Positions 10,346 to 41,030 of a DNA stretch of 62,675 nucleotides are shown piece after piece. Each line of letters opens with the position of its first letter. The stretch's first letter is position 1. Under the pieces are notes generated by a model. The model was not told the DNA's origin, did not search any database, and saw only the letters and a list, made by a program, of their open reading frames with translations. This DNA is from Tolypothrix carrinoi HA7290-LM1. Its GTDB lineage: Bacteria; Cyanobacteriota; Cyanobacteriia; Cyanobacteriales; Nostocaceae. Position numbers and translations under genes: made by a program. The stretch lies in NCBI GenBank assembly GCA_019358935.1, contig JAHHIK010000043.1, positions 1 to 62,675 on the forward strand. The letters are read 5' to 3'.

Positions 10346-10641
10346 ATTTAAATGTAGCGAATTGGTTTAAAGTTCAATTTACTTCAAACTATAGTCAACA
10401 ATAGCTTAGTACGGCGTTACAGAAGTTGGTGTAAATTGAACCAGTAAATTGAAACGCATTAGGTAGTTGATATATTAGGATTAAGAAAAAGATTATACAG
10501 AAAGTTTCCGTATAATAAATAGTTAGGCTGCAAAGTATGGCTATTGTGGAAGACGAGTAAATAGTTAACTTTTCTCTTTTTAAACCGCTTAAAGTTGCTC
10601 AAGCCTGCTATGTTGTCAATAGTTGAGTTAAGCAGGTATTG

Positions 10642-11289
10642 ATGCAACATGTCACCCCCAAGGAAGCAGCAAAAATCCTTGGTGTCCACGTCTCCTCCCT
10701 TAGAAGATGGGAGAACGAAGGAAAGCTCAAAGCAATCCGGACACCAGGAGGTCAAAGAAGGTTCATCCTCGAAGAAATCGAAGAAGTCGCAGGTATCCCC
10801 AGGACAATTAGAACTATTTGTTACGGAAGGGTTTCGACTCATTCCCAATCAGACGATTTGCAGCGACAACTTGAACATTTACGCTCAAGATACCCAGAGG
10901 CTGAAGTTATTTCAGAAACTGGAAGCGGACTCAATTTCCGGAGGAAAAAATTCCTTGCAATTTTGGAACGAATCATCGACGGTGATATCCAACGTATTGT
11001 CGTTGCCCACCCTGACAGACTCGTTAGATTTGGATTTGAACTGGTTAAATGGTTATGCGAAAAATTTGAGTGCGAACTCGTGGTTCTCAATGACCGTAAA
11101 CTCAGTCCGGAAGCAGAACTCATTCAAGATATGTTGTCCATCGTCCACTGTTTCTCTAGTAGGTTATACGGGCTTAGAAAATACAAATCAAAGCTCAAAG
11201 AAGACTTACAAAAAGAAAGCTCGTCATTCGATATCCAAATCGACAAAACTTCAACCGAACAGTGTACAGAAAATCAGGCTATATCCTAG
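10642..11289 (+). CDS. tnpA: IS607 transposase (MerR-like HTH + serine recombinase)
   Basis: EAAKILGVHVSSLRRWENEGKL...RTPGGQRR HTH; YGRVST catalytic Ser; GSGLNF.RK; DRLVRFGFEL; SSRLYGLR. Confidence 0.95.
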   Translation: MQHVTPKEAAKILGVHVSSLRRWENEGKLKAIRTPGGQRRFILEEIEEVAGIPRTIRTICYGRVSTHSQSDDLQRQLEHLRSRYPEAEVISETGSGLNFRRKKFLAILERIIDGDIQRIVVAHPDRLVRFGFELVKWLCEKFECELVVLNDRKLSPEAELIQDMLSIVHCFSSRLYGLRKYKSKLKEDLQKESSSFDIQIDKTSTEQCTENQAIS

Positions 11290-12430
11290 CAAGGAATTAC
11301 ATCTAGTTTGGAAGCGATGGTTAGCTCAGTACCGTTATTATTACAACGAAACTATTAGTTTATTACGTTGTTATGACGGTGTTGAGAAACTTTCGGCTGA
11401 AATATTAGATAAGTTTTTGCAACGACTAGAAAGCTTGCCGGATTGGGTAAAAACAATACCTGGTCATCAACGGCAAGAGGCTTGCTTTGAGGCTTACGAT
11501 GCATTTAATCGAGCAAAGAAAGATGGAGGTTGGGCTAAGTTTAAATCTGTCAAAGCTACAACTCAAACAATACAATTCAAAGTTGGTAACTACAAAAATG
11601 GCACTTGGTATTGTAATACAACTAAAGGATTAAAGTTCATCACGATTAATCAAACCGTCCCAGATCAATGCGAATATGGTACAGAGCTTGTATACCGTCG
11701 TGGTAAGTGGTTTGGGTGTTTTCCTTGTGTTGAAGAAGTTATTACTACTGGTAGCGATAGAGTAATTGCACTTGACCCAGGAAATCGCACTTTTTTGACG
11801 GGGTTCGATGGTGAGAACGTCTTAGAAATTGGTAAGGGAGATATCGGACGCATACAACGCTTGTGTCAGCACCTTGATAAATTAATAAGCCGTTCAACCA
11901 AAGTTAAATGCCGTCACCGCAGAAAGATGCGACTTGCTGCAAATAGAATTAGAGAAAGAATTCAAAGCTTAATTAAAGAGTTGCATAACAAGGCGACTAA
12001 CTTGCTAGTTAATTCTTACAAAGTAATATTCCTACCTACTTTTGATTCGAGCCAAATGGTAATCAAAATTAGAAATGGGAAAAAACGCAGAATTAACAAT
12101 AAATCAGCTAGGCAAATGTTAACTCTTTCTCATCACCGCTTTGAACGACATCTTAAACAAGCGGCATCTAAAAAAGATGTAATAGTCGTTCTTTGTAACG
12201 AGTCATACACCTCTAAAACCTGCGGCAACTGCGGTCATATTCACCACAAACTTGGTGGCTCTAAAATCTTTAAATGCTCACGTTGCGGAATTAAAATTTC
12301 TCGTGATGTAAATGGCGCACGTAATATTTTATTGCGTGCTTTGCAAGCAACTGCCTTTACCGTGACGCACGATAGAATCGTACTTTCAGATGAATCTGAA
12401 TTGACGGATGCCATAGTTAGTCAGGTTTAA
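10649..12430 (+). CDS. tnpB: RNA-guided endonuclease TnpB of pro-Fanzor/Fanzor2-like type (true start uncertain)
   Basis: KIRLYP; RuvC-I ALDPG; IFLPTF where the canonical RuvC-II Glu normally sits; NESYTSKTC; CxxC...CxxC; RDVNGARNI. Confidence 0.93.
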   Translation: MSPPRKQQKSLVSTSPPLEDGRTKESSKQSGHQEVKEGSSSKKSKKSQVSPGQLELFVTEGFRLIPNQTICSDNLNIYAQDTQRLKLFQKLEADSISGGKNSLQFWNESSTVISNVLSLPTLTDSLDLDLNWLNGYAKNLSANSWFSMTVNSVRKQNSFKICCPSSTVSLVGYTGLENTNQSSKKTYKKKARHSISKSTKLQPNSVQKIRLYPSKELHLVWKRWLAQYRYYYNETISLLRCYDGVEKLSAEILDKFLQRLESLPDWVKTIPGHQRQEACFEAYDAFNRAKKDGGWAKFKSVKATTQTIQFKVGNYKNGTWYCNTTKGLKFITINQTVPDQCEYGTELVYRRGKWFGCFPCVEEVITTGSDRVIALDPGNRTFLTGFDGENVLEIGKGDIGRIQRLCQHLDKLISRSTKVKCRHRRKMRLAANRIRERIQSLIKELHNKATNLLVNSYKVIFLPTFDSSQMVIKIRNGKKRRINNKSARQMLTLSHHRFERHLKQAASKKDVIVVLCNESYTSKTCGNCGHIHHKLGGSKIFKCSRCGIKISRDVNGARNILLRALQATAFTVTHDRIVLSDESELTDAIVSQV

Positions 12431-12527
12431 TCGCTTTGATTAGCTTAAAAGTTGCACTAAATGATTCAATTTCTACAATGGAGAAACTCTGGAATCAAAG
12501 TTGCCTAAAATATGAGGAAACTGATGT

Positions 12528-13388
12528 ATGGAAAGTAAATGGATTAGTCATAACGGAGTTCGCCTTTTCTCCGAATCTTTCGGTACTCCAGACGATCCAC
12601 CAATTTTATTAATCATGGGAGCAATGGCTTCAGCCGTGTGGTGGGCGGAAGACTTCTGCTGCCAATTAGCTGCTCTGGGTCGCTATGTAATTCGCTACGA
12701 TCACCGAGACACAGGACGCTCAACAAGTTACGAGCCAGGTCACATTTACTATTCTGTTGAAGATCTAGCGGATGATGCTTTTTGTGTTCTCGATGGCTAT
12801 GGAATTCAGAGTGCCCATTTAGTGGGGATATCGCTAGGAGGATTCCTAGCTCAACTCATGACGCTCAAGCGTCCTCAACGGGTCAAAAGTCTGACGTTAA
12901 TCGCCTCGGAACCCTTGGCTGAGACTGATCCGACCATGCCAGGGATCGATTCATCTGTCCTGGAATACCATGCAAAAGCCAGTGAACTGGATTGGGCAAA
13001 CCGTGAGGCAGTGATTGAATATCAAATTGGTGCGTGGCGATTGATTTCCGGTTCAGCCCATCCGTTTGATGAATCAGCTATCCGCGAATTAGCTGGGGCT
13101 GACTTTGATCGTACTCCCAATCTCATGACGACCTTTAATCATGCCTTGCTTCAAGGTGGAGAAAAATGGTTTAACCGCCTCCACGAAATCGCTGTACCAA
13201 CTCTGGTTATTCATGGCACAGAAGATTGTGTGTTACCCTATGCCCATAGCTTGGCATTACAAGCAGAGATCCAAGATGCTGTATTACTACCATTGCCAGG
13301 AACAGGACACGAACTACATCGCGATGACTGGTCTGTTATTCTTGAAGCGATAGAAAAGCACACTGTATCACAGCAAGAAACAGCCTAA
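12528..13388 (+). CDS. Alpha/beta hydrolase, EstX/EstT/RdmC-like esterase
   Basis: [23 protein letters not shown], nucleophile elbow GISLGG, HGTED, GTGHE catalytic triad motifs. Confidence 0.88.
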
Positions 13389-13469
13389 CAATTCGCTTGG
13401 AGCGGACTATTGAAAGTCCTTGGTACTGAGTTTGAGGTTATTTACAGCCGCTCAAGCGAACCGTTAGAC
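13383..13469 (+). other. attC-type integron cassette recombination site (87 bp)
   Basis: R'' GCCTAAC overlapping the stop codon; R' GTTAGAC; arms ttcgcttg(g)agcgg(a)ct and agccgctcaagcgaa pair perfectly except for two extrahelical bases. Confidence 0.85.
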
Positions 13470-13516
13470 CGCAATCACATAAAATGCGGTAATCATAAGT
13501 GATTAACCGGACTTGA

Positions 13517-13684
13517 TATAAGATAACGTGGCTCTGTTATAAGATAACGTGGCTCTGTTATAAGATAACGTGGCTCTGTTATAAGATAACGTGGCTCTGT
13601 TATAAGATAACGTCGCTCTGATATAAGATAACGTGGCTCTGTTATAAGATAACGTGGCTCTGTTATAAGATAACGTCGCTCTGC
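13517..13684. repeat. Tandem array, 8 x 21 bp (TATAAGATAACGT[G/C]GCTCTG[T/A/C])
   Basis: Counted directly; no spacers. Confidence 0.95.
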
Positions 13685-13970
13685 CAAATATAAAACGATC
13701 GCGACTTATTATTAAAACCTTGCTCTTATACCGTTTCACAAAAATCTTATACAATTCGCTCCCCCTGCTCCTCAGACTAGCCCTGCTACCCAAGTGCCTG
13801 CCTTCACCCGTCAAAATTAGGTAGGGTTGAGTATTACTACCACAGGGCGGAAATAAAGCTACCATTCAAAAAAGCCAGAAAGCTTGTCTTTCAAGCTTTT
13901 TGAATGCTTCAAAAAAATTTCAATGAGTCAAAAAGAGCAAAGACGATTTTTGTCAACCACGGCTATTTGC

Positions 13971-15596
13971 TCAACCCGTAGTGTTTATATTCAGTGGCAA
14001 CCTGACTGTAAAGCTTGCACCCTGCCCTTCACCGTCACTCGCTGCGGTAATAGTACCATTGTGCATTTCCACCAAACTACGGACGATCGCTAACCCCAGT
14101 CCCAATCCCTTATGCCTTGCTGTATATTGGTTATCAGCTTGACGAAATTGCTCGAATACATAAGGCAAAAAGTCAGGACTAATACCAATACCTGTATCAC
14201 TGACGGTGATTTGGGCGTAGGACTCATCTCGCTCTAACCAAATTGCGATCTGTCCTTCCTCTGGTGTAAATTTAATCGCATTAGTCAGTAAATTCCACAA
14301 AACTTGCTGCAATCGATTGGCATCGCCGAAAACTTCGCCGATTGTAAATTCAAGTGCTGACTCAATCGCAATGCTTTTAGCATCAGCTAATGGACGCACT
14401 ACATCAATTGCGGCATTAATTATTTGTGTTAAATCAACTGGGCACAGTTCAAGACGAAGTTTACCTTCACTGATGCGGGAAAAGTCTAAGAGGTCTTGAA
14501 TTAACTCGTTTTGTAACTTGGCGTTACGCTCAATTGTTGCAAGTGCGCGTGCAGTAGCTAAGTCGTCTAACTTGCCACCTTGAATTAACTTTGTCCAACC
14601 GAGTATAGCATTAAGAGGCGATCGCAATTCATGAGATATAATTGCCAAAAACTGATCCTTGGTGCGGTTGCTTGCTTCTGCTTCTGCACGACAGGCTTTT
14701 TCTTGTGCTAACAGTTGTTGCTTTTCTGCTTCGGCTTCTTTGCGATCGCTGATGTCGCGTTGCACAAAAATAAAATTAGTGCATTCCCCTGATTCGTCAA
14801 GCATCGGGGTAATATTTATTTCTGACCAAAACTCCGATCCGTCTTTGCGGTAGTTAATTAGTTCTACCTTTAGTGGCTGATAATTAGCGATTGCCTGACT
14901 AATTTCGTCTAGTACTTTTGGATCGGTTTTCAGTCCGTTGAGGATATTCGGTGTCTCACCTAAAACCTCCTCAGCACTGTAACCAGTCATGTGAGTGAAT
15001 GCTGCATTCACATAGACAATTCGCGCTTTGTTTTCATTAATTAACTTGACTTGAGTAACCATAACTGCATCGGTTACTTGAGATAAAATATAAGCCTGAA
15101 ATTTTAACTGCTCTTGAGTTGCTTTGAGTTTCCACAGCAGTTCTACTTTTTCGAGAGCGTGCTGAAGGGTTGAAAGCAAATTTTCTGCTGTGAGCTGTTC
15201 TTTGGTGAGATAGTCTGTAGCTCCTTTTTTCATTGCTTGGACAGCGATCGCTTCATTACCGCAAGCTGTCAGCATCACCACGGGAATATCTACCTGATTG
15301 GTTGCGTTTCTCAATTTATCGAGAAACTCAAGACCATCCATATCAGGTAGAGAGTAATCGACTACAACACAATCAGGCTGCAAAATCTTGCACAATTCTA
15401 GCGCTTCTTCGCCAAACTCTGACTCGATGACACTATATATGTAGTTCGAGCAGGAGTGTAAATAACGGCGGAAAGTTTGCCTGTCTTCGTGACAATCATC
15501 AACGATGAGAATACTGCGTCGCTTGTGTGCCATTTTTTCCACCCTTAGCGGCAATTCATTTGTGCTTGCTTCCTTAATTGGTTTATTTATTTGCAT
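13971..15596 (-). CDS. Hybrid sensor histidine kinase (REC-PAS-HisKA-HATPase)
   Basis: ILIVDD/VVVDYSLP/DYLTK receiver; YVNAAFTHMTGY...NYRKDGSEFW PAS; SHELRSPL; NAIKFT, DTGIG, GLGLGL. Start could be 15641, 15596 or 15533. Confidence 0.93.
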   Translation of the reverse strand: MQINKPIKEASTNELPLRVEKMAHKRRSILIVDDCHEDRQTFRRYLHSCSNYIYSVIESEFGEEALELCKILQPDCVVVDYSLPDMDGLEFLDKLRNATNQVDIPVVMLTACGNEAIAVQAMKKGATDYLTKEQLTAENLLSTLQHALEKVELLWKLKATQEQLKFQAYILSQVTDAVMVTQVKLINENKARIVYVNAAFTHMTGYSAEEVLGETPNILNGLKTDPKVLDEISQAIANYQPLKVELINYRKDGSEFWSEINITPMLDESGECTNFIFVQRDISDRKEAEAEKQQLLAQEKACRAEAEASNRTKDQFLAIISHELRSPLNAILGWTKLIQGGKLDDLATARALATIERNAKLQNELIQDLLDFSRISEGKLRLELCPVDLTQIINAAIDVVRPLADAKSIAIESALEFTIGEVFGDANRLQQVLWNLLTNAIKFTPEEGQIAIWLERDESYAQITVSDTGIGISPDFLPYVFEQFRQADNQYTARHKGLGLGLAIVRSLVEMHNGTITAASDGEGQGASFTVRLPLNINTTG

Positions 15597-38613: not shown

Positions 38614-40404
38614 CTAATCAGTTACTTTCAATTCGTAGAGGTTCCAGAATGGACCACCAAGAGCAGTGTACTTCACACCGACAAAGCGATCGCGCACTGC
38701 TTGCAAATTCAACCGTTCCACCAAATGAATAAACGGCAACTGTTCCGAAGCGATGCGCTGATATTCGTAATAATATTCCTTGCGCTTGTTTTCATCAACT
38801 TCTTGCGCTCCTTTAATATAAAGGCGATCAATTTCCTTTTCCCAGTCAGCAGCTTCCCAACCAGTTATCCCCGACTTTCCCGGTTGTGGAGCAATATTAA
38901 ATGCGTGAGATGCACCATTAAGTCTCCAGATATTGCTAGCAGAATGAGGTTCAATTCCGCCACCCTGAAATCCGCCAAGGTAACAATCCCAATTTTGGGC
39001 GACTTTCAGTTTATCTAAATAAGCGTTGAAACTGAGAATTTGCAAATCAACTCTAATCCCTAGTTTAGCCAAATCCCGTCTGATTTGCGCTGCCATATCT
39101 CCTCTAACTTTCCTTTCGGAATTTGTTAGCAAAGTGAATCGTACTTGATTTCCGTCAGCATCAACTAATTGATTTGCCGAGTTATATTTGAAGCCTGCTT
39201 GTAAAAGTAATTTCTTGGCTTTTTCTGGATCGTGATTGTAAACCTTTAAGCCTTTTTCTGGTGGCAAGAAGAAAGGACTTTTGACATAAACAAAGGAATT
39301 TTGCAGTTCACCCAATCCCCGAAAAGCATTTGTTTTCATCGTTTCGCGGTCAAGGGCATAAGCTATGGCTTGCCGAAATTCTTTTTTATTAAACCAGCGA
39401 GACTTGACAGGATCTACAAAAGGCTGACCCTGAGCATTTTTAGCTTTACTCAGGTTGAAAGCAATAAAAGTTGTACTTGTATCTGGTCCACCGTTATATA
39501 TTTTAAACTTCGCTCGCTTTTCCTCTCGCTTCAACAAACTAAACCCTTCCGGAGCAACTTCCAAATCATCCAATTGTCCAGAACGAAAACTAATTAACTG
39601 GTTGTCAGTAGATTCAATAATTTGGTAAACAACTCGCTCAATATAAGGTTGAGGTTTACCTTGAGCATCTTTGCGCCAATAATAGGGATTGCGCTTAAAA
39701 ATCACTCGCTGACTGGGAGTATAGCTTTCCATTACATAGGGACCGTTGCCAACAATTTCTTTCAGATTGGTTCCTGTCGTCCACATTGAGAGAAACTGGA
39801 GATTACCATCAGAACCCTTGGTTTGGGTAGATTTTTTGAGTATATGAGCCGGCAAAATTTCTATTCCACCTACTAATCTTAAAAAAGGAGCAAACGGTTC
39901 CGGCACAGTGAATTCTACCCGACGTTCATCAAGTTTTTTTACTGTTGGTAACTTACCGCTTTCACCAATTTTTAGAGAATCTTTGCTGGGTGCAGGTATC
40001 TTTGGGTTTAGGTAAACATCGTTGTAGGTAAAAAGAATATCATCAGCCGTCATTGGTTGACCATCTGACCACTTAAGTCCTGGTCGCAAAGTAATTACAA
40101 TTCGCTGACCATTATCAGTAACTTGCCAAGACTCAGCTAAAGCAGGCTCAAGCTTAGTCGTGAACGGGTTTGTTGTCATCAACGAGTCAAAAATAAAACC
40201 AAAAACGTTATATGCCGACTCATTCAGCGCCGGGTTAAAAGTTGAAGGCTCACCCGAAGTGGCAAAGACGAGTTGCGGCACCTGAGCTGCTGCGGTTCTG
40301 AAATTAGCCGGGTTACAGGCAGTAACTGTAAGTGCTGTAATTAAAGCCAGAATTACTGATAAACGAAAACGCCTGATTGTGGAAAAGATGCTCGAAAATT
40401 TCAT
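38614..40404 (-). CDS. ABC transporter substrate-binding lipoprotein, family 5 (peptide/nickel)
   Basis: Lipobox VTAC; PALAESW, LRPGLKWSDG.P.TADD, GNGPY, RNPYYW, FRQAIAYALDR. Confidence 0.93.
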   Translation of the reverse strand: MKFSSIFSTIRRFRLSVILALITALTVTACNPANFRTAAAQVPQLVFATSGEPSTFNPALNESAYNVFGFIFDSLMTTNPFTTKLEPALAESWQVTDNGQRIVITLRPGLKWSDGQPMTADDILFTYNDVYLNPKIPAPSKDSLKIGESGKLPTVKKLDERRVEFTVPEPFAPFLRLVGGIEILPAHILKKSTQTKGSDGNLQFLSMWTTGTNLKEIVGNGPYVMESYTPSQRVIFKRNPYYWRKDAQGKPQPYIERVVYQIIESTDNQLISFRSGQLDDLEVAPEGFSLLKREEKRAKFKIYNGGPDTSTTFIAFNLSKAKNAQGQPFVDPVKSRWFNKKEFRQAIAYALDRETMKTNAFRGLGELQNSFVYVKSPFFLPPEKGLKVYNHDPEKAKKLLLQAGFKYNSANQLVDADGNQVRFTLLTNSERKVRGDMAAQIRRDLAKLGIRVDLQILSFNAYLDKLKVAQNWDCYLGGFQGGGIEPHSASNIWRLNGASHAFNIAPQPGKSGITGWEAADWEKEIDRLYIKGAQEVDENKRKEYYYEYQRIASEQLPFIHLVERLNLQAVRDRFVGVKYTALGGPFWNLYELKVTD

Positions 40405-40427
40405 AGTTTCAATATTTGAGTCTTTTG

Positions 40428-41030
40428 CTAAAGTAATTGAGATTGTAGCCAACCGAGGAAGTTTTGAGTTTTGCTGAAATACTGAATACCAGTATTTTGT
40501 AATATTTCTACAACTTCCCGTTTACCAAATTCTTTGGAATTGCTACTTAAAAATACTTTTGTTTTACTATAATGTAAGCGTGCATGGTGAATTATACACT
40601 CTAAAATTAATTTATCCATCAGATGTTTTTGAAGTATATTTCTCCCTAAGCTTTGTTGAATAATTTCTGTTGCTAATGGAATCTCTTCCGCTTTGCTGAT
40701 AAGCTGGTTAAAAGCTATATCAAAACCTTGTACGATTTCATTCTTGTGTTCAACAAAGCTAACTTTGGATTGGTTTAGTAGCGAAAGTAATAACTGTGAT
40801 TTTTGTGAAATTTTATCTCGTTCTGCTTCATTAATTTGAATATCTAACCTGCAAAGGAAATCTTTGTTGTATTTTTCCTCTTGCTCCAATGTTGTAAGAG
40901 CTTCTACATAACAAATGCTCGGTATTGCTAGACAAACAGATGTCGGCGTATTAAAAAGTAAATTTTTTGCTTGCGGATCTTGCCCTTTAGCAATGCCCAT
41001 CAAAAAATTAGTTTCAACGTAAAGTATCAC
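40428..41030 (-). CDS. PIN-domain protein (DUF4935-like)
   Basis: ILYVETNFL, CYVEAL, MDKLILECI, FLSSNSKEF acidic PIN-type motifs. Confidence 0.75.
   Translation of the reverse strand: MILYVETNFLMGIAKGQDPQAKNLLFNTPTSVCLAIPSICYVEALTTLEQEEKYNKDFLCRLDIQINEAERDKISQKSQLLLSLLNQSKVSFVEHKNEIVQGFDIAFNQLISKAEEIPLATEIIQQSLGRNILQKHLMDKLILECIIHHARLHYSKTKVFLSSNSKEFGKREVVEILQNTGIQYFSKTQNFLGWLQSQLL

Follow-up and report, generated by a model that had tools for sequence, protein, structure and literature searches.

Gene cassettes that carry an attC recombination site with no integron integrase nearby have been described as attC clusters that have no integron integrase (CALIN; Cury et al. 2016, PMC4889954) and as single attC sites lacking integron integrases (SALIN; 10.1101/2022.09.11.507474). 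In these papers, many such sites are argued not to be relics from the lack of intI pseudogenes, which lie near only 15 of 279 CALINs (PMC4889954), and attI is searchable for integron classes 1–3 only. The class 1 site attI1 has L and R boxes, a G^TT crossover and two direct repeats upstream, DR1 and DR2 (PMC8946536, PMC3518468). Here we analysed contig JAHHIK010000043.1 of Tolypothrix carrinoi HA7290-LM1 (C43 in our numbering; its whole length of 62,675 nucleotides is referred to as the window) and focused on a block at 10467–13483. Like CALINs and SALINs, this locus holds an attC cassette without an integrase beside it, and IntegronFinder would likely call it a SALIN; unlike them, it retains a recognisable attI. 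It is very probably a cyanobacterial integron relic, made up of a truncated attI, a first cassette and its attC without intI, that likely arrived as a transferred fragment and was later invaded by an IS607-family insertion sequence (IS). The individual parts are of known kinds.

The truncated attI (10467–10528, plus strand) comprises 55 bp left of the crossover and the R box, with the crossover between G10522 and T10523. In 8 of the 15 intI-bearing loci of the family, platform DNA with 83–94% identity to this stretch lies ~230–290 bp upstream of intI; the homology stops at G^TT, and unrelated cassettes then follow. The other seven loci include four with a 5'-truncated intI, one that is GC-rich and foreign-looking and two with short traces. 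A hidden Markov model built from the intI-linked platforms alone matches 10467–10528 at an E value of 1.8e-9, and the core model at 2.6e-10. A match to 10 of 12 positions of the sigma-70 consensus spans the junction between host DNA and attI, a candidate Pc promoter by consensus match only. At L097 (G022:C14), intI lies in GC-rich DNA without the cyanobacterial platform, and this contig is possibly foreign or a contaminant.

Within the attI is a 25-bp palindrome (10492–10516; fold z −4.03). Its right arm (10510–10516) is the L box, and 5 bp separate this from the R box. Intact platforms carry about five palindromes between the intI start and the crossover, at about −255, −215, −183, −142 and −30; the window attI retains only the last, and those upstream are gone. 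The cyanobacterial attI resembles attI1 in its L and R boxes, its crossover and its repeated upstream units, and differs in having ~5 palindromes of 25 bp over ~250 bp instead of two direct repeats. Related arrays with the same ending were found at 4 of 15 intI loci of other families in the phylum, with two more that are diverged. Because every palindrome begins with a core-site-like heptamer, we read them as putative accessory IntI-binding sites like DR1 and DR2. The initial annotation had suggested that the hairpin could be the remnant of a previous att site; the hairpin is there, but an earlier attC is ruled out, as the attC model is silent at this place and the alignment puts the hairpin in the attI platform. 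The literature searched, outside which most subscription journals lie, holds no account of an attI from cyanobacteria.

The other end of the cassette is an 87-bp attC (13383–13469, plus strand; crossover after G13463), identified by its fold and by a covariance model. The bottom-strand fold has a z of −4.69, which none of 200 shuffles equals, and the site has R'' and R' boxes and extrahelical bases. A heuristic attC finder was noisy, and we used instead a covariance model built from just 19 attC sites in intI-linked arrays of other genomes; 96% of its cells are paired, its covariation exceeds that of all 500 shuffles, and as a positive control it recovered three attC sites in a clinical array. 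On its bottom strand the site scores 77.9 bits (E 7e-17), against 25.3 bits on the top strand, and the second-best site in the window reaches 11.5 bits, leaving a single attC, where a CALIN would have at least two.

The first cassette (10523–13463, plus strand) measures 2941 bp with the IS and 1038 bp without it, and IS-free alleles are present in three other genomes. In G030 (locus L033), homology begins precisely at 10522 and position 10554 is joined to 12456; the same join is found in L052 (Nostoc sp. NIES-4103) and L053 (Fischerella muscicola), and in both, the homology with the window continues for another 55 bp to the left of the crossover. The joint also appears, with 1903 bases skipped, in contigs of sequencing runs X3 and X4, which match L052 and may not be independent of it. 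Several proposals of the initial annotation hold. It had taken GTTAGGC at 10522–10528, the core site complementary to R'', for the 5' boundary of the cassette; the 7-mer alone is weak evidence, with 407 copies in the genome, yet the homology of IS-free alleles that start at or pass through G10522 rules out chance. Its well-formed attC, its single-gene cassette of roughly 1 kb after removal of the IS and the secondary entry of the IS607 element were likewise upheld, and the IS-free alleles that it had named as a check were found. The same cassette sits in differing arrays and contexts, with varying neighbours and attC loops. In the window, the leader at 12526 lacks 10 bp found just 5' of the gene start in L052, X3 and X4.

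The block extends beyond both crossovers. The stretch shared with L052 runs from 10467 to 13483, at 96.6–97.9% identity and in a different gene neighbourhood; there, the block (attI, cassette, attC and a 14-bp stub) adjoins an internally deleted intI fragment. The stub (13470–13483, plus strand), the right end of the shared block, is likely what is left of the donor array's next cassette. In the window, the flanking genes are a homocysteine-biosynthesis gene (hcyBio, PF01837; 9176–10345) and a histidine kinase gene that starts at 13971. Host homology to congeners ends at or before 10466, and no part of the block occurs in any of 11 hcyBio-flanking stretches from 10 congeners. Because the block ends off the att crossovers, it likely arrived as a transferred fragment, and the comparison points to integrase-independent recombination. 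It does not have the anatomy of an attC × attG insertion, since this would leave host DNA, not att sequence, at both crossovers. The gap between the two flanking genes (10346–13970) is hypervariable, with different DNA in nearly every congener. To the right of the block (13484–13683), a dispersed repeat of 40 bp, with 16 matches across the genome, is followed by ~8 tandem 21-bp units. A scan of the window against Rfam gave no match at gathering scores.

To look for an integrase, the whole genome was searched (7.96 Mb in 184 contigs, 99.65% complete); relatives in searches (Nostoc, Fischerella and Rivularia) point to a heterocyst-forming cyanobacterium. The best score to TIGR02249 was 53.8 bits against a cut-off of 265, and IntI proteins of the family gave only a 23-residue match, to a 31-codon intI stub on contig C28. 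The attI is present without an intI beside it. No tyrosine recombinase was found on the window's contig, either among 24 genome matches or with the family IntI proteins, as the initial annotation had stated for the window. An IntI encoded elsewhere in the genome and acting in trans was rejected, as none exceeds the cut-off and the generic tyrosine recombinases are at most 22–28% identical over long stretches. Without an IntI in the genome, the cassette probably cannot move. Excision by an outside IntI, through attI × attC recombination on the truncated attI, is possible in principle.

Similar relics are widespread. With a 64-bp attI query, matches at E ≤1e-4 turn up in 175 of 301 genomes of the family (~109 at ≤1e-10, counted by hand), and an IntI over the cut-off occurs in 13 of the 301 and in none of the 10 congeners. 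We inspected 69 of the 291 non-self matches, among which kin are not independent and two of the 29 best duplicate L052/L053 where compared. One has an intact intI, 19 have fragments and 49 have none; for the 29 best the counts are 1, 7 and 21, and for 40 further loci hand-picked from four genera 0, 12 and 28. An attC on the correct strand lies downstream of attI at 11 of 26 loci within 1.5 kb and at 19 of 40 within 2.5 kb. The crossover G^TT is retained in all 29 best loci and in 37 of the 40 others. Judging from these sequences, integrase-less integron relics are common in the family.

The window genome itself has nine solitary attC sites, three of them with an attI relic upstream. The second relic, on contig C28 (G000:C28, ~39000–40500), carries the 31-codon intI stub, a full palindrome array, attI and a 182-aa cassette with attC, ends in a truncated next cassette and is bracketed by two 109-bp imperfect (83%) copies of the start of the neighbouring gene. 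The third (G000:C12, 51720–53262) has four palindromes, a more distant attI type (crossover 51880) and a two-gene cassette with attC. Because many solitary cassettes sit behind an attI relic, a missing intI pseudogene is a poor argument for insertion at a secondary site.

The cassette gene encodes an EstX-like alpha/beta-fold macrolide esterase of 286 aa (12528–13388, plus strand). With 439.1 bits it exceeds the cut-off (420) of NF052610, a model for alpha/beta macrolide esterases; it is 62% identical to EstX of enterobacterial plasmids (PDB EstX match at E 8.5e-121) and keeps the catalytic triad S102, D233 and H261, which was established for EstX (PMC11214618). The cyanobacterial esterases NOD-1 and OCA-1 as well as OCB-1, which are 60–62% identical to EstX, act on 16-membered macrolides (PMC12910000) and have the same EstX family and triad, a relation traced via EstX and not by direct alignment; the enzyme of the window is likewise predicted to hydrolyse, and likely hydrolyses, 16-membered macrolides. 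As in the estX cassette of clinical integrons, the gene belongs to this family, has this triad and ends in an attC, although the attC itself differs.

With the covariance model, an attC was found directly 3' of the esterase gene in 11 of 16 cyanobacterial loci scanned, the fragment L034 being left out: L035, L052–L057, L059, L060, L063 and a weak-scoring fragment, L084. The model gave none behind the gene in L033, L036, L058, L061 and L062, and additional attC sites are close by in L055, L057, L059 and L060. In the main text of PMC12910000, the words attC and cassette occur zero times and integron once, in the introduction, so the cassette nature of these esterases appears to have gone unnoticed. 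L033 (G030:C1, ~1118326–1119313) is an IS-free copy with a truncated attC whose homology starts from the crossover and which adjoins non-attI DNA, a candidate for a true secondary-site insertion. Another insertion, of ~1.2 kb, splits a relative of the esterase gene in L036 (G322:C131). An esterase 96.5% identical to that of the window is encoded on a Nostoc plasmid typed as conjugative (L198, NZ_CP026682.1), where half an attC remains.

The IS607-family element (10555–12457, plus strand, 1903 bp) has an AC core at both junctions (10553–10554 and 12456–12457). Its ends are defined by paralogs on contigs C73 and C178 and in relatives and by the empty site in the X3 and X4 contigs; insertion is via the shared dinucleotide, with no longer target duplication. 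In the five copies aligned without recourse to the motif, the AC core is always preceded by G, and the GAC target rests on these five, the left ends of L011 and L022 being outside the count. IS607 elements studied so far use a GG core instead (PMC10711439; 10.1101/2023.11.20.567912). As is typical of the family, a serine recombinase gene with an N-terminal helix-turn-helix precedes tnpB: tnpA (10642–11289, plus strand) encodes 215 aa with Resolvase and MerR-type helix-turn-helix domains (NF033518, 198.3 bits, cut-off 110).

The tnpB gene (10649–12430, plus strand, 593 codons; NF040570 over the cut-off) is of the pro-Fanzor type, with D376, E518 and D553. Its protein shows the published pro-Fanzor pattern, with DPG at RuvC-I and a glutamate six residues before the zinc finger (Ealt; Yoon et al. 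2023, PMC10711439), and its best PDB match is Fanzor2 (9b0l). It thereby resembles pro-Fanzor IS607 TnpB proteins (PMC10711439) and Fanzor2 (PMC11832414) in DPG and Ealt, in the partnership with an IS607 TnpA and in the cyanobacterial host. From the way in which the final 160 nt fold in four IS copies, an omega-RNA was predicted at 12300–12477 (plus strand, approximate boundaries), consisting of right-end hairpins and a guide (12458–12477, uncertain by a base or two) that lies in the cassette leader. The 20 bases past the right end match the IS-free L052 allele behind GAC at 20 of 20 positions and the L053 allele at 14 of 20; on this basis, TnpB is predicted to cut empty copies of the cassette. 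Genomic self-targets of the predicted guides match at best at 13–14 of 20 positions. Retention of IS607 by TnpB has been described (10.1101/2023.11.20.567912).

The tnpB frame opens 7 nt past the tnpA start and is free of stops through all of tnpA (10649–11289), so that codons 1 to ~210 overlap it in the +1 frame; the folded TnpB core begins at about residue 205. Among 37 tnpA copies (47–100% identity, including that of the window), 28 have no stop in this frame, six have one and three have more, where synonymous shuffles lead to an expectation of 2–6 copies without a stop; the +2 frame has 5–19 stops. Third-position divergence in tnpA (0.17–0.31) is about half that in tnpB alone (0.34–0.43). 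A profile of the extension and the first helix matches Fanzor2 residues 79–171 (E 5.7e-5), which include its N-terminal domain (PMC11832414), with part of the score supplied by the non-overlapping helix. AlphaFold models the 593-aa frame with a mean pLDDT of 61.6 and residues 1–103 below 50; the extension has only a helix (108–118) and a strand (148–152), so that a folded extension is neither shown nor excluded. The literature searched, which did not extend to bioRxiv supplements, shows only partial overlaps of tnpA and tnpB (PMC9956272, PMC10530073 and the supplement of Yoon et al., in the parts seen). Unlike the pro-Fanzors in that supplement, which are called shorter and without a disordered N-terminus, the frame here spans tnpA, and a match to the N-terminal domain of Fanzor2 lies in its distal part. 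This is a chromosomal example of a tnpB overprinted on tnpA, and the comparison suggests that pro-Fanzor proteins as annotated lack part of their N-terminus. In several relatives, tnpA seems to have ATT, ATA or ATC as its start codon.

Taken together, the anatomy suggests the following history. In a donor integron, IntI likely placed the esterase cassette at attI by attI × attC recombination; the junction at G^TT is directly seen. Integrase-independent recombination then likely brought the block from 10467 to at least 13483 into a variable intergenic site, in line with the block's ends off the crossovers and the different neighbourhood in L052. Judging from its family, TnpA would have inserted the IS607 element at the AC core of the cassette leader, where both the junctions and the empty alleles are at hand. 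With its guide taken from the cassette leader, TnpB is predicted to cut copies of the cassette that lack the IS, which would favour keeping the IS, and the esterase would likely hydrolyse 16-membered macrolides. A visiting IntI would excise, probably inefficiently, a 2.9-kb circle that includes the IS and would regain a perfectly complementary core.

Several points weigh against this account. No duplication is seen flanking the block, unlike the C28 relic, and the esterase occurs in none of 32 intI-linked stretches checked, leaving no complete donor integron in hand. An intI could lie in one of the gaps of the assembly, given its 184 contigs. The esterase is below the cut-offs of the EstX model NF033124 (418.5 of 600 bits) and of EstT (345 of 450), and two of nine checked EstX residues (per PMC11214618) differ (A34 and I173). 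The support comes from sequence, with recombination, binding, expression and enzyme activity all predicted; that the palindromes bind IntI is something we only infer, and the route of arrival is likewise inferential.

Alternatively, the orphan attI may still be a landing pad for an outside IntI, the dispersed relics acting as a distributed integron, which is compatible with the origin proposed here but, on balance, rather unlikely. The L and R boxes are intact in the window, the crossover is kept at nearly all inspected loci as counted above, and IntI-bearing genomes exist in the family (the 13 of 301); loci found with an attI query are, however, biased towards intact cores. In genus g52, L252/L140 and L253 have in common one intI-deletion junction, ~150 bp of flank and part of a second cassette, yet their first cassettes differ, switching at G^TT. 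This hints at exchange after integrase loss, although it is the one informative pair, and the swap could equally have arisen when another array took part in homologous recombination. Truncation at the 5' side lowers the activity of attI1, without abolishing it (PMC3518468), and contigs of run X1, the likely source run, contain no cassette-free or IS-free joint, although contigs drop rare variants.

A resident integron that decayed in place, and was not imported as a fragment, is improbable. Such decay is seen elsewhere: an integron lies beside a ribonucleotide-reductase-beta-like gene (a label read from the sequence alone) at L132/L142, L220, L222, L224–L227, L230 and L141, and this platform is intact in G370 and deleted to varying extents in seven g57 loci and one congener. 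Yet the window genome lacks this conserved flank, none of the 11 stretches from congeners has integron DNA at the site, and L052 holds a near-identical block among different genes. Very improbable, finally, is the reading that the initial annotation had favoured, in which a trans-acting IntI put a solitary cassette into a secondary genomic site (attC × attG): such a route has been documented, with single attC sites being common (10.1101/2022.09.11.507474), the genome has nine such sites and no IntI, and the G030 allele does start at the crossover beside non-attI DNA, but here the 55 bp left of the crossover are an integron's attI, with host homology ending at or before 10466, and the 14 bp right of attC recur with L052 in another neighbourhood. 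The integron cassette with its GTTAGGC boundary and the later IS607 entry survive from that annotation; the secondary-site placement does not.

The relic reading bears on the question of where solitary cassettes without an integrase come from, and yields a cyanobacterial attI that can be used in searches and whose palindrome array is so far unexplained. As far as our literature search reaches, three things are new: this attI with its array, how abundant orphan attI relics are, and that the cyanobacterial esterase is a cassette gene. More speculatively, and with considerable doubt, the family might run a distributed integron, in which integrase-less attI pads in a third to over half of the genomes, often at several loci, would swap cassettes when an IntI passes; its cargo would include an EstX-type resistance gene and an RNA-guided nuclease transposon that would home into empty cassettes, with the N-terminus of the nuclease inside its transposase gene. 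As integron cassettes, the cyanobacterial EstX-like esterases connect an environmental reservoir with the same capture system by which clinical estX is spread.

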